IMG/VR virus record: IMGVR_UViG_2563366799_000008
Strand: one strand, 5' to 3'
Source of the DNA: a virus
Taxonomy: Duplodnaviria > Heunggongvirae > Uroviricota > Caudoviricetes
Length of the DNA: 11,363 bases
The translations under genes and the position numbers were made by a program. Positions 1 to 6,613 of this stretch are shown here, piece by piece. The notes beneath the pieces were generated by a model. The model was not told the origin of the DNA. It made no database searches and saw only the letters and a list, made by a program, of their open reading frames with translations. Position 1 is the stretch's first letter. Every line of letters starts with the position of its first letter.

Positions 1-742
<742 letters not shown>

Positions 743-2948: not shown

Positions 2949-4019
2949 TTACCCCCTGAAGCCCGGCGGAATTTCGTTATCCGGTTCAGAAATATGATTC
3001 ACACAACGCTGGTTGTTCGTGCCGCTTACCGGGAGCAACCAGGGGTTCTCAAAATTCCGGTCCGGTCCAAAAAACGTCGTCGCTCGCTGAACAAATTCCG
3101 TTCCCGTTTTCCCGGTAGCCGCCAAGTATCTTGCGTAACGCCTCACGCCATCCAGCATGGCCTCTGGTGGCACCCCCTCGCGTAATCTGGCCTTCCAGGC
3201 ACTGAAAGCGGATTTCTTCGGGTTTGCTCCGGCACGCAACGGGTACTCCCGCCAGACCTGTTCGAACACATCCGGATAATCCACTCGTCCCACAGACTGC
3301 CCGGTGTTTTCCGGGACTACCCGATCGGCTTCCCGCTGAATGGCGGAATCGGCTTCGGGCTGCTGCAGTTGGTGTGATTGCTCCGGCCTTGCGGTCATCA
3401 CCTGCTGCACAGCGCCCGAATCGGCTTTCAGCGCATACGCTGAATCGGCTTCCGGTGTCGTGCCTGCTGGCTGACCAAGATTGACGGTCTGAACATCCCC
3501 TGCCTGGTTCGTGGCGTTTTTTACGCCATGGACCATAGTGTTTTGATCTTCTTGATCTGTATCTTTATCTGTATCTTTATCTTTCGTGACTCGTCGTGAC
3601 ATGTGCGTGACATTTCGTGACGCGCCGTGACAATCGCCATTTTGTTCCCGCTTTCTTTCCCTCTCTCGCTGCGCCCTCTTGCGCTCTGCAGGAGATTTTG
3701 CGGTTTGCGAAATATTGCCGTTGTCCTCTTTAAGCACCTGGCGTTTTTCCCATCCAGTGATTAAATCACCATCAAGTACCCGCCCCTGCATCGTCTGCAA
3801 AATTGAATCAATTACCTCTTCTGTCACGTCGAGCGCACTTGCCAAATCTTCTGTCGTGACATCAATGTGACCTCGCGTGACATTTCGTGACGCGCTCACC
3901 AAGAGGTGGATATACACTGCCATCACTGTTGCAATTGGCTGCCCTGACACCCTGGCAATTGTTCGCCACTTAGGGTCATTTGGCATGTCATGCCATAATC
4001 TGAGCCAGGCGTTAGCCAT
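2949..4019 (-). CDS. phage replication initiation protein (lambda O-like / YdaU-like replisome organiser)
   Basis: Track ORF 2949-4025; ATG at 4019 preferred (MANAWLRLWHDMPNDPKW...). C-terminal FEQVWREYPLRAGANPKKSAFSAWKARL resembles prophage replication proteins. Internal iteron clusters and an AT-rich tandem repeat lie within the coding sequence, as in lambda O. Confidence 0.8.
   Translation of the reverse strand: MANAWLRLWHDMPNDPKWRTIARVSGQPIATVMAVYIHLLVSASRNVTRGHIDVTTEDLASALDVTEEVIDSILQTMQGRVLDGDLITGWEKRQVLKEDNGNISQTAKSPAERKRAQRERERKREQNGDCHGASRNVTHMSRRVTKDKDTDKDTDQEDQNTMVHGVKNATNQAGDVQTVNLGQPAGTTPEADSAYALKADSGAVQQVMTARPEQSHQLQQPEADSAIQREADRVVPENTGQSVGRVDYPDVFEQVWREYPLRAGANPKKSAFSAWKARLREGVPPEAMLDGVRRYARYLAATGKTGTEFVQRATTFFGPDRNFENPWLLPVSGTNNQRCVNHISEPDNEIPPGFRG
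3545..3584. repeat. AT-rich tandem hexamer repeat (ATCTKT units) inside the O-like gene
   Basis: atctgt atcttt atctgt atcttt atcttt at 3555-3584, preceded by gatctt. Encodes the KDKDTDKDTD linker on the - strand. Lies directly beside iteron cluster 1. Confidence 0.7.
3585..3631. repeat. iteron cluster 1: five CGTGAC direct repeats at ~10-11 bp spacing (putative replication origin)
   Basis: CGTGAC at 3585, 3595, 3606, 3616 and 3626. The 21-bp block gcgtgacatttcgtgacgcgc (3605-3625) recurs exactly at 3875-3895. Confidence 0.6.
3855..3895. repeat. iteron cluster 2: four (C/T)GTGAC direct repeats at ~10-11 bp spacing
   Basis: CGTGAC at 3855, TGTGAC at 3866, CGTGAC at 3876 and 3886. An inverted copy (gtcacg) sits at 3824-3829. 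Contains the exact 21-bp copy of 3605-3625. Confidence 0.6.
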
Positions 4020-4090: not shown

Positions 4091-4516
4091 TCAATGCACA
4101 GCCACAATATTTCCTGCAGGGCCACCACGATTCATCTGGTTGAAACCAGCGATCGCCACTGCGACAAAATCATCAGCGTCTCTCACCAGTCGTTCCCGCG
4201 TCTCCACTAGTTCCCGAAAATAGGCTGAGCTATGACTGCGCATTCGGGCCACCAGCAGAGGTGGCATTGCTTTTTCGATAGCTGGTAACAACGCCTGAAT
4301 TTTTTTAACCGCATCAGGGGTGTCTTTCTCCACCCAGCGGAAAATTTTCTGAGTATTGCGAGCCAGGGCTTCCGGATGGCTGTCGTCATACAGTTCCGGG
4401 AACGTCATTCCCAGCTCGAAATACGCTTTGGTAATTTTCGCAGCCGGTACTTTTTCGCCGTCCGGATGCGCCCAGGCATTCATCGCCATGCGGATGTGTT
4501 CATGCTTGATTTTCAT
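4091..4516 (-). CDS. YdaT-like protein (Rac-type prophage, cII-position gene)
   Basis: 141 aa, begins MKIKHEHI as I recall for Rac YdaT. GGGAG SD about 6 nt upstream. Its ATG overlaps the stop of the Cro-like gene (ATGA), suggesting translational coupling. Confidence 0.75.
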   Translation of the reverse strand: MKIKHEHIRMAMNAWAHPDGEKVPAAKITKAYFELGMTFPELYDDSHPEALARNTQKIFRWVEKDTPDAVKKIQALLPAIEKAMPPLLVARMRSHSSAYFRELVETRERLVRDADDFVAVAIAGFNQMNRGGPAGNIVAVH

Positions 4517-4767
4517 GAATCAACTCCCATCAGCTTTTTCGTAGTAGTTTTATTCCTGCCAATAGTTAAAATTGCATCGGCAGAAAATAATCCGTTTGAT
4601 GCAAGAGCGATTTTTTCAGCGTAATTTGTTTCGCCGGTATATTCTGTGCGAGGCAATTTTCCGTTATCCATCCATTTATAGATTGCTCTTTGGCTGACAC
4701 CACAAACGTCGGCCACAACAGCAACGCGAACAGTTTTGATTACATCTTCAAGTGTTTTCTGGTTCAT
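4513..4767 (-). CDS. Cro-like HTH regulator (YdaS-like)
   Basis: Track ORF 4513-4839; ATG at 4767 preferred because GAGGG sits just upstream and the product starts MNQKTLEDVIKT. HTH-like segment VADVCGVSQRAIYKWMDNGKLP. Divergent from the repressor gene. Confidence 0.7.
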   Translation of the reverse strand: MNQKTLEDVIKTVRVAVVADVCGVSQRAIYKWMDNGKLPRTEYTGETNYAEKIALASNGLFSADAILTIGRNKTTTKKLMGVDS

Positions 4768-4846
4768 ATCACCCTCACAATGTGAACTTTGAGTACATGC
4801 TATAACAGAACTGACAGTACATTCAAGAGCGAATATCATTGAACTT
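4768..4846. promoter_or_regulatory. divergent immunity promoter/operator region (OR-like)
   Basis: 79-bp gap between divergent cro-like and repressor genes. Direct AGTACAT repeats at 4792-4798 and 4816-4822. + strand candidate: -35 CTGACA 4811-4816, 17-bp spacer, -10 TATCAT 4834-4839, placing the start at or next to the repressor ATG. - strand candidate: -35 TTGAAT, -10 TATAGC (weak). Confidence 0.45.
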
Positions 4847-5266
4847 ATGGTTCATGAAGATAAAGCGCGTAAAGAGTTCGCCAGTAGGCTTGCGCTAGCC
4901 TGTGAAAACGCTGGTTATGAACAACATGGAAGGCAGGCAGAAATTGCCCGTCGAATGAAATTAACACCAAAAGCGGTTAGCAAATGGTTTAATGGCGAAA
5001 CAATTCCTCGCCGGGAGAAATTAAGGGAATTAGCAACACTAATAGGAACAACACCAACCTATCTTTTGGGAGAGGATACAGAAGAAAGTGGACAGGTACG
5101 TTTCTATCAGGAGTTAAATCCAAGACAAAAAATCATCATTGACCTTCTGGACGAGCTCCCTGACAGTGAGACAGATGAACTTTTAAAAACTCTTGAAGAG
5201 AAAAAACAGAAGTACAATGCAATTTACGAAGAGTTAGCACGAAAGAAAAAACAAAAAGCCTCTTAA
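4847..5266 (+). CDS. prophage repressor, XRE-family HTH (DicA/RacR-like CI analogue)
   Basis: 139 aa. N-terminal HTH (AEIARRMKLTPKAVSKWFNGETIP) and acidic/basic helical C-terminus. Divergent from the cro-like gene. No SD upstream, consistent with a leaderless transcript. Confidence 0.85.
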   Translation: MVHEDKARKEFASRLALACENAGYEQHGRQAEIARRMKLTPKAVSKWFNGETIPRREKLRELATLIGTTPTYLLGEDTEESGQVRFYQELNPRQKIIIDLLDELPDSETDELLKTLEEKKQKYNAIYEELARKKKQKAS

Positions 5267-5276
5267 ACCAGCATAA

Positions 5277-5314
5277 ATCCGGTAGCGCCTTCCTCCGGGT
5301 TTGTGCTTCACTTT
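5277..5314 (+). terminator. weak candidate intrinsic terminator after the repressor gene
   Basis: Arms ATCCGG (5277-5282) and CCGGGT (5295-5300) with a 12-nt loop, followed by T-rich TTGTGCTTCACTTT. Stem is short with one G-U pair. Confidence 0.25.
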
Positions 5315-5325
5315 ATCCCATCTCA

Positions 5326-5390
5326 TTTTTTTACATACAAAATGTACTAATAGTACTTTACAACAATGAACGCAAAGTACGTTATATGCC
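5326..5390. promoter_or_regulatory. OL/pL-like operator-promoter region for the leftward early operon
   Basis: Near-palindrome ATGTACTAATAGTACTT (5342-5358) and AGTAC at 5376-5380 share the AGTACAT half-site found between cro and repressor. TTTACA hexamers at 5330 and 5357. No clean -10 identified. Confidence 0.3.
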
Positions 5391-5563
5391 TGCCACCCAC
5401 CCCGCCCCACAGAATGCAGGGCAATACTTCGAGTTACCAGGCAGTGGTCAGGGGTTAAGTAGCCAGCCCGAGGCGTAAGAACATGACGGCAGGGTTCAAC
5501 TTTAATAACTATGCAGCAGGTTTTTGTTCCGCTACCCCGGCGTTAAGGGGAAATGAGGTCAGC

Positions 5564-5719
5564 ATGGATACTATCGATCTTGGCAACAGCGAATCTCCGG
5601 TATGTGGCGTGTTCCCCAACCAGGACGGTACGTTCACCGCGATGACGTATACCAAAAGCAAAACGTTTAAAACCGAAAATGGTGCCCGTCGCTGGCTGGA
5701 AAGAAACTCAGGTGAGTGA
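5564..5719 (+). CDS. small early-left protein, YdfA/YdaF-like (DUF1391-type)
   Basis: 51-aa product MDTIDLGNSESPVCGVFPNQDGTF... from the internal ATG at 5564 with GAGG 5 nt upstream. Size and position after the repressor match ydfA in Qin. Stop sits 1 nt before the next ATG. Confidence 0.65.
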   Translation: MDTIDLGNSESPVCGVFPNQDGTFTAMTYTKSKTFKTENGARRWLERNSGE

Positions 5720-5720
5720 T

Positions 5721-6296
5721 ATGGATTTCGACACAATCATGGAAAAGGCTTACGAAGAATACTTCGAAGGTCTTGCCGAAGGCGAAGAAGCTCTCAGCTT
5801 CAGTGAGTTTAAACAGGCACTCAGAATAAGAATGTGCTCTCACAATGACGCGGAGCACAAATATGAGAAGCAAAATCAGACCGCAGAAAATTTTGTTCTG
5901 GAACCCGGAGAAACGCTTTTCAAAATTCCCGTTACGTGCCCCATTTGCGGTTTTACATCAGAAGAACTTGACGACTCCTGTAACAATCAGGAAACAACCA
6001 AGTATGTCGAAGATGATACCGAGTGCGCACGAAGAACGATTATATCCACGAGTCCAAACTCCAGGACCAATAAATCTCACTTTGAGAGGGTGATTAATCC
6101 ACTCCCCCAAACCAATAAAAAAGATGCCGGAGGACAAAAAACCCAATGGAACAACGGGATATCTGTCAAAAAAAGACGTTCCATTAAAGACAAACAACGC
6201 AGCGCCAACAACTGTAAGCGCTTTATACCAGTAATCAATTTTCATGTTCTTAAGCGGATTTATTGGTGGTTGCGACATTGCTTAATGAATCCTTAA
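5721..6296 (+). CDS. hypothetical acidic protein with CPICGF Cys motif (YdfB/YdfC-position); 3' extent uncertain
   Basis: ATG 5721 with AGGTGA SD. The first ~100 aa look protein-like (acidic, CxxC...C...C). The C-terminal half is a basic low-complexity sequence that fully overlaps a hydrophobic - strand ORF. Confidence 0.4.
   Translation: MDFDTIMEKAYEEYFEGLAEGEEALSFSEFKQALRIRMCSHNDAEHKYEKQNQTAENFVLEPGETLFKIPVTCPICGFTSEELDDSCNNQETTKYVEDDTECARRTIISTSPNSRTNKSHFERVINPLPQTNKKDAGGQKTQWNNGISVKKRRSIKDKQRSANNCKRFIPVINFHVLKRIYWWLRHCLMNP
5958..6278 (-). CDS. possible small membrane protein, antisense to the early-left operon (SieB-like position)
   Basis: 106 aa with three hydrophobic helix-like segments. 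ATG with AAGGA about 11 nt upstream and an in-frame stop directly 5' of it. Opposite orientation mirrors sieB in Rac. Could instead be a shadow of the + strand ORF. Confidence 0.35.
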   Translation of the reverse strand: MSQPPINPLKNMKIDYWYKALTVVGAALFVFNGTSFFDRYPVVPLGFLSSGIFFIGLGEWINHPLKVRFIGPGVWTRGYNRSSCALGIIFDILGCFLIVTGVVKFF

Positions 6297-6555: not shown

Positions 6556-6613
6556 TTTCTGGTGACGTTTGGCGGTATCAGTTTTACTCCGTGACTGCTC
6601 TGCCGCCGTTTTT
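6556..6613 (+). ncRNA. dicF: DicF small regulatory RNA (ftsZ-targeting, Hfq-dependent) with 3' T-tract
   Basis: tttctggtgacgtttggcggtatcagttttactccgtgactgctctgccgcc followed by gttttt matches the ~53-nt DicF sequence as I remember it. Lies about 170 bp upstream of dicB, as in Qin. Confidence 0.8.

Follow-up and report, generated by a model that had tools for sequence, protein, structure and literature searches.

A 79-bp gap between two divergent regulatory genes in a stretch of viral DNA (Caudoviricetes; IMG/VR record IMGVR_UViG_2563366799_000008; 11,363 nt, called the window here) raises the question of whether it forms the immunity switch of a prophage, which operators a repressor would occupy there, and whether the repressor mRNA begins at its own initiation codon. 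The two genes encode a 139-residue repressor on the plus strand and a Cro-like protein on the minus strand, both with helix-turn-helix (HTH) domains. The window is an Escherichia coli lambdoid prophage of the Qin-like type (the Qin/Rac kind), and 11,163 nt of it are 99.96% identical to a prophage of E. coli G3/10. We are confident that the locus is the immunity switch of this prophage, with the specificity of phage HK022 and a leaderless repressor mRNA.

A preliminary description of the window had proposed the heptamer AGTACAT as the operator motif, present twice between cro and the repressor gene and again downstream of the latter. All three copies were recovered: two in the intergenic region (4792-4798 and 4816-4822) and one, as the complement, beyond the repressor gene (5342-5348, within ATGTACTAATAGTACTT). 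As an operator in its own right the heptamer was rejected, its frequency not being beyond chance (three copies against 0.87 expected; 12 of 200 shuffled sequences reached three). It does belong to real operators, as the right arm and flank of a longer, 15-bp site. Each intergenic copy is part of a longer match, GAACT-N3-AGTACAT, the two lying 24 bp from each other, and the general form is a 15-bp near-palindrome, TGWAC-N5-GTWCA. The shorter pattern GWAC-N5-GTWC occurs five times in the 11.4-kb window against 0.33 expected, a count that none of 200 shuffles reached, and all five matches fall in the two control regions. Sites do lie on both sides of the repressor gene as first described, in a number of three in the right operator (OR) and two in the left operator (OL) rather than two and one; OR3 and OL1 had been overlooked, and the other elements listed in that description were all found in their places. 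Centre-to-centre distances are 24 bp for OR1-OR2, 33 bp for OR2-OR3 and 24 bp for OL2-OL1 (Table 1).

The layout, described at the outset as OR/OL-like, is borne out by phage HK022, whose annotated oR and oL sites it matches in sequence and spacing. In the HK022 record X16093, three 15-bp sites are listed for oR (3057-3071, 3033-3047 and 3000-3014; centre distances of 24 and 33 bp) and two for oL (2201-2215 and 2225-2239; distance of 24 bp); the operator sequences as listed are TGAACTTATGGTTCA, GGAACTGATAGTACA, TGAACTTATGGTTCA, TGAACTTTAAGTACA and TGTACTATTGGTACT. The oR site 3000-3014 has the cI ATG at its centre and is identical to OR3 of the window; in the record of phage HK75, which names the equivalent sites oR1-3 and oL1-3, its equivalent is oR3. 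The operator regions of the window align base for base with the HK022 operators. A weight matrix trained solely on the five operators annotated in X16093 ranked OR3 (top score), OL2, OR1 and OR2 as the four best positions of the window and OL1 eighth. Beyond the operator consensus, the near-identical sites and their spacings, HK022 and HK75 share with the window a repressor -35 inside OR2, a -10 that ends 7 nt before the ATG, an OR3 placed on that ATG, and a PL of the form TTTACA-17-CATyAT with OL1 in its spacer. The search across relatives suggested in the preliminary description was also fruitful, as the element recurs in the OR regions of related phages and prophages across genera. Operator differences between the window and phage genome Tritos spare the arms and affect the N5 centres of OR1 and OL2; position 5381 is the one exception.

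Two further candidate sites were not accepted. A third OL site at 5321-5335 (TCTCATTTTTTTACA), aligned with HK022 oL3, matches at only 6/10 arm positions, and the HK022 matrix returned neither a convincing OL3 nor a far-right operator after cro anywhere in the window, a difference from HK022. The palindrome TACAT-N5-ATGTA at 5332-5346 is perfect only through the T that the window has at 5336, where G3/10 and Tritos have C, and was dropped as a conserved site. The 41-mers around 5336 with T and with C both gave zero matches in the complete E. coli genomes, though G3/10 carries C.

The remaining claim was that the best plus-strand promoter places the transcription start at a repressor ATG that has no Shine-Dalgarno sequence. 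CTGACA (4811-4816) and TATCAT (4834-4839), 17 bp apart, indeed form the sole sigma-70-like site that the promoter scan found in 4400-5800 (10/12 matches). The repressor ATG at 4847 stands 7 nt past the -10, with no GGAG, GAGG or AGGA in the 20 nt upstream, a stretch taken up by the -10 and the OR3 left arm. From the in-frame stop at 4790 to this ATG, that frame contains no alternative start codon (ATG, GTG or TTG). The same scan recovered the same promoter in G3/10 and, as CTGATA-17-TATAGT, its counterpart in HK022.

We then compared the OR of eight sequences (the window, Tritos, HK022, HK75, Salmonella S9-5 and SI8, Klebsiella phage 2b LV-2017 and Citrobacter Omnitron). In 8/8, 7 nt separate the -10 from the ATG; the hexamer reads TATCAT, TATAGT, TATGAT or TACTAT, with TAnnnT constant and the inner bases varying. 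The -35, CTGAnA, is likewise constant in 8/8, though it lies in the N5 centre of OR2 and the centres of OR1 and OR3 vary. This constancy fits an OR2 centre that also serves the repressor promoter as its -35, lying right at the operator dyad. None of the eight sequences has room for a Shine-Dalgarno sequence, because the left arm of OR3 plus two centre bases (TGAAC plus two) fill the 7 nt. The repressor mRNA is very probably leaderless, as had been proposed, a reading strongly supported by this comparison and by experimental precedents. Differential RNA sequencing (dRNA-seq) of K-12 found only five leaderless mRNAs, three of which are dicA, racR and ymfK (PMC4681348). The paaR2 mRNA of prophage CP-933P is leaderless by 5' RACE (rapid amplification of cDNA ends), N-terminal sequencing and mass spectrometry (PMC8630535), and the lambda cI mRNA from PRM is leaderless as well, which is also established knowledge (PMC8630535, PMC3342100).

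Table 1. Predicted and annotated features of the switch and its surroundings (window coordinates; promoter-relative positions count from the predicted starts)
Feature	Position	Strand	Sequence or remarks
YdaT-family regulator, CII analogue	4091-4516	-	second gene of PR operon; Pfam YdaT_toxin
YdaT operator-type inverted repeat	4506-4523		TTGATTTTCATGAATCAA; cro-stop/ydaT-start junction
cro-like gene, 84 aa	4513-4767	-	ATG at 4767; Shine-Dalgarno GAGGGTG 4771-4777
OR1	4783-4797, centre 4790		TGAACTTTGAGTACA; covers predicted PR start region; aligns with HK022 oR1
PR-like promoter for cro (putative)	4799-4826	-	-35 TTGAAT (4826-4821), 16 bp, -10 TATAGC (4804-4799); predicted start ~4792; OR1 about -5 to +10, OR2 -15 to -29
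OR2	4807-4821, centre 4814		AGAACTGACAGTACA; centre is the repressor promoter -35; aligns with HK022 oR2 GGAACTGATAGTACA
PRM-like repressor promoter (predicted)	4811-4839	+	CTGACA-17-TATCAT; predicted start A4847 (or T4846); from 4847, OR3 -7 to +8, OR2 -40 to -26
OR3	4840-4854, centre 4847		TGAACTTATGGTTCA; centred on A of repressor ATG
Repressor, 139 aa	4847-5266	+	Pfam HTH_3 only; HK022-cI-like HTH, DicA-like C-terminal tail
Terminator-like hairpin (putative function)	5270-5307	+	starts 4 nt after repressor stop
OL2	5343-5357, centre 5350		TGTACTAATAGTACT; abuts PL -35; aligns with HK022 oL site TGTACTATTGGTACT
PL-like promoter (putative)	5357-5385	+	TTTACA (5357-5362), 17 bp, -10 CGTTAT at 5380-5385; predicted start ~5392; OL1 in spacer and -10, OL2 against -35
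OL1	5367-5381, centre 5374		TGAACGCAAAGTACG; in PL spacer and -10; aligns with HK022 oL site TGAACTTTAAGTACA
ydfA	5564-5719	+	first gene of PL (dicBF-type) operon; Pfam DUF1391; RefSeq annotation in G3/10
DicF small RNA	6557-6608		Rfam match, 72.5 bits

The proteins point in the same direction as the sites. In a search of phage-genome proteins the N-terminal 100 residues of the repressor resembled HK022 cI, with 47% identity over residues 4-102 and a nearly identical recognition-helix segment (TPKAVSKWFNGE in the window, TPKAISKWFNGE in HK022 cI). The repressor also matches K-12 DicA at 29% identity overall (BLASTP E 5e-15), in an alignment that runs through the tail. These two homologies make the protein a mosaic, in which a DNA-binding domain of the HK022 type is joined to a tail of the DicA type. 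It has the features of a DicA-type short repressor, a class of about 135-140 aa: an N-terminal HTH, a short helical tail homologous to that of DicA and no cleavage domain. The Pfam search detected no S24 domain in either the window repressor or DicA, whereas HK022 cI carries Peptidase_S24 (PF00717), its cleavage and oligomerisation domain. Since the S24 domain is missing, induction would be expected to proceed through an antirepressor or through bistable, stochastic switching, as for DicA (PMC10448788), and not through RecA-stimulated cleavage. Over 73 aa the Cro-like protein shares 60% identity with HK022 Cro (E 1e-33), and RefSeq annotates the same 84-aa coding sequence in G3/10. RacR (a marginal match to the HTH only) was discarded as a repressor homologue, and so were DicC (no similarity) and YdaS (marginal similarity, not significant) as Cro homologues. 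Among solved structures the only match of the repressor was the P22 C2 repressor (E 0.006), and the Cro-like protein had none. In the record of Klebsiella phage 2b LV-2017, the homologous repressor region (901-1611) matches residues 1-102 only and is followed by a separate 'C2' coding sequence (1243-1611), which suggests that the gene is split or frameshifted in that record.

Operator consensus and spacing, recognition helix and Cro homology are all of the HK022 type in the window; an S24-bearing, RecA-cleavable repressor is not found. Judged from these likenesses, the switch has in all likelihood HK022-type specificity, and the locus largely corresponds to an HK022-type immunity region. The two differ further in that HK022 has cII where the window has YdaT, and in that the window lacks both a nun gene and a put-like RNA downstream of PL.

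On the cro side, the PR-like promoter is the positional homologue of the annotated HK022 pR (TTGACT-16-CATAAT) and is identical in Tritos. The next gene of the operon encodes a YdaT protein about 97% identical to PDB 3C4R, with a strong match to 8BT1 as well; YdaT of CP-933P binds DNA and has a CII-like role (PMC8630535, PMC9986795). The inverted repeat at the cro/ydaT junction is the sole zero-mismatch match in the window to TTGATT-N6-AATCAA, with the ydaT ATG in its central spacer, and this pattern was footprinted at the ydaS/ydaT junction of CP-933P (site OM; PMC9986795). Given the match to a footprinted site, a YdaT-dependent, PRE-like promoter directed toward the repressor gene is likely nearby, and by analogy with lambda a second, leadered repressor transcript would likely arise from it.

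On the other side, the PL-like promoter is the positional homologue of the annotated HK022 pL (TTTACA-17-CATCAT), and here this copy stands apart. Of the five differences between the window and G3/10, two fall in OL/PL inside a stretch of 46 bp: 5336 has T in place of C, and 5381 has G in place of A. The base at 5381 closes OL1, where relatives have A, and is at the same time the -11 base of PL; the change turns CATTAT into CGTTAT. The promoter scan detected TTTACA-17-CATTAT in G3/10 and no PL in the window. A 41-mer with G at 5381 was present in 0/5,426 complete E. coli genomes, against 218 for the version with A. The A at -11 is the most critical base of a -10 element; because it has been changed to G, PL is probably crippled in this copy. 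The G could be a promoter-down mutation that silences or domesticates the toxic dicBF operon; alternatively, it could stem from a sequencing error. Just past the repressor stop, the hairpin at 5270-5307 has a 13-pair stem (-19.2 kcal/mol, z = -4.5), and 0/200 shuffles fold as well; the terminator scan misses it because its U-tract is weak. It is likely a terminator that shields PL and OL from repressor transcription. The PL leader (5392-5565) showed no put-like or other structured RNA (z = +1.24), and Rfam gave no match in the window except DicF.

The arrangement suggests how the switch would work. A dimer of the repressor would, by homology, bind the 15-bp operators. Occupancy of OR1 and OR2, which cover the start region, spacer and -35 of PR, would shut off cro, ydaT and the replication genes, and occupancy of OL1 and OL2, which cover PL, would shut off the ydfA-dicF-dicB-ydfD-exonuclease-xis-int operon. 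The repressor itself would be transcribed from CTGACA-17-TATCAT, starting at the AUG or 1 nt before it, to give the leaderless mRNA. OR3 has its centre on the repressor start, where binding of repressor in excess, or of Cro, would silence the repressor promoter; the same operators presumably also serve the HK022-like Cro. During establishment, YdaT bound at the cro/ydaT junction repeat would probably drive the leadered transcript, and the hairpin may halt repressor transcripts ahead of OL. The switch would be induced by an antirepressor or flip bistably, as for DicA.

Three other accounts of the locus were weighed. The chance account, in which the AGTACAT repeats are fortuitous and the region an ordinary intergenic spacer, could draw on the unremarkable frequency of the heptamer, and it is refuted by the element of 13 to 15 bp, which is highly enriched, confined to the two control regions, spaced as in HK022 and conserved across genera; we give it next to no weight. 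It is also very improbable that the sites serve chiefly Cro, or are inherited HK022 sequence for which the short, DicA-like repressor no longer has a use, being without the C-terminal cooperativity domain of HK022. The S24 domain mediates pairwise cooperativity in lambdoid repressors, and this repressor has lost it; moreover, K-12 DicA bound only one (Oc) of its three predicted operators in vivo (PMC3441716). Yet the repressor and HK022 cI have almost the same recognition-helix region, the arms are intact in the repressor/operator pair of about 1,045 of 5,426 complete E. coli genomes and of phages such as Tritos, and where copies differ, they do so in the spacers, the arms staying the same.

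A more serious contender, which we still consider improbable, has the repressor made mainly from a leadered transcript, which would begin at a PRE-like promoter activated by YdaT, near 4500, or at some other upstream position, with CTGACA-17-TATCAT incidental or minor. The perfect YdaT site agrees with it, as does the YdaT-dependent PRE of CP-933P, which reads toward the repressor gene there (PMC8630535, PMC9986795), and OR2, enclosing the -35, could block the proposed promoter in a lysogen. However, eight diverged sequences keep the key -35 and -10 bases and the distance to the ATG amid variation at adjacent bases, the ATG of a PRE transcript would likewise have no Shine-Dalgarno sequence before it, and lambda and CP-933P have both routes, the maintenance transcript being the leaderless one.

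Several points weigh against the reading of the locus as an HK022-type switch with a leaderless repressor mRNA. A 6-nt discriminator would put the start at T4846 and leave a 1-nt leader. Start sites favour a pyrimidine-purine step, and the step T4846-A4847 makes A4847 at least as likely; the predicted leader is 0-1 nt whichever start applies. OR2 encloses the entire -35 of the repressor promoter, and repressor synthesis with OR2 occupied is a difficulty. The PR-like promoter is a weak consensus match with C at -7, falling below the scan threshold because only 8/12 positions match. With PL seemingly inactivated in the window, the OL side may no longer control anything. The gene of G3/10 at the position of rem (next to hokD and outside the window) has no similarity to K-12 Rem, and other antirepressors were not searched for. 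The HK022 operator assignments come from GenBank feature tables and, as background, Carlson and Little (1993). Binding, transcription start, regulatory outcomes and induction route are deduced here from the observed sequences, spacing, conservation and protein homologies.

Occupied OR2 may hinder, allow or assist RNA polymerase at the repressor promoter. By our own reasoning, the major groove of a -35 at the dyad would face away from a dimer bound to the arms; lambda CII at PRE shows the same geometry, with protein and polymerase on opposite faces. Going beyond this, the same 15 bp might carry repressor on one face of OR2 and sigma region 4 on the other, so that the bound repressor would co-bind with, or even activate, RNA polymerase instead of shutting it out, and, separately, the A-to-G change at -11 of PL might be a selected silencing of the toxic dicBF; we regard these ideas as speculative and rather unlikely. 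If the former were true, OR2 co-binding or activation would be the work of a short repressor without the usual cooperativity and cleavage domain.

The K-12 Qin DicA/DicC/dicBp system is of the same prophage family and has the same layout, the same PL-side operon driven downstream (ydfA, dicF, dicB, ydfD) and a short repressor with a homologous tail (PMC10448788, PMC3441716). Operators are predicted in both its dicA-dicC and dicA-dicBp regions (PMC10448788), and its leaderless dicA mRNA (dRNA-seq; PMC4681348) resembles the repressor mRNA predicted for the window. K-12 DicA operators are of a different type, TGTTAGT-N4-ACTAACA, so that data on DicA are not transferable site for site. The DNA-binding domain of DicA is only distantly related to that of the window repressor, and DicC is unrelated to the Cro-like protein. 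The K-12 dicA gene also has no consensus promoter and needs DicA for activation (PMC3441716), whereas the window promoter matches at 10/12 positions, and K-12 has Rem where the syntenic position of G3/10 lacks a homologue.

Prophage CP-933P of E. coli O157:H7, with its PaaR2/YdaS/YdaT module, shares a closely similar YdaT, the same TTGATT-N6-AATCAA site at the cro/ydaT junction, the lambdoid logic of PR, PRM, PL and PRE, and a repressor mRNA proven leaderless (PMC8630535). Its repressor, Cro and operators are different, and its repressor gene is followed by the toxin-antitoxin pair paaA2-parE2, which the window locus does not have. Lambda likewise has repressor and cro genes that diverge, an OR of three sites and, past the repressor gene, a cluster of OL sites. 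Its operators are 17 bp rather than 15 bp; its OR3 lies over the promoter body rather than at the transcription start, and its OR2 at about -42 rather than centred on the -35. Unlike the lambda repressor, the window repressor is predicted not to be RecA-cleavable. All modules of the switch are already known and leaderless prophage repressor mRNAs are well documented; no new kind of mechanism is involved.

The switch is widespread. A 1.1-kb segment around it is covered by at least 80% in 1,045 of 5,426 complete E. coli genomes (about 1 in 5), and the repressor/operator set occurs in deposited phage genomes as well: Tritos encodes a 100% identical repressor, labelled 'CI repressor', and three vB_EcoS phages encode one that is 99.3% identical. 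HK022-like specificity predicts which superinfecting phages the carrier strains should be immune to, and the switch supplies a defined operator for reporter work and electrophoretic mobility shift assays. It also adds one more case linking prophage repressors with leaderless mRNAs.

The neighbouring genes follow the two transcription units. On the left arm (minus strand) the cro-like and YdaT-family genes are accompanied by a replication-organiser gene and a DUF977 gene, and on the right arm (plus strand) the repressor gene by ydfA, DicF, dicB, ydfD and genes for an 823-aa exonuclease, an excisionase (xis) and an integrase (int). Similarity to K-12 Qin resumes just upstream of ydfA. The left end of the window (1-200) is an IS5 terminus, with a 100% match to annotated IS5 copies. 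This IS5 sits inside an abiH-family abortive-infection gene that G3/10 has intact, and the open reading frame (ORF) at 131-742 is the leftover, truncated AbiH. Adjoining the abiH-family gene is an ORF of 465 aa (826-2223), with no Pfam match and annotated as 'hypothetical' in G3/10, which may be its partner in a defence module.

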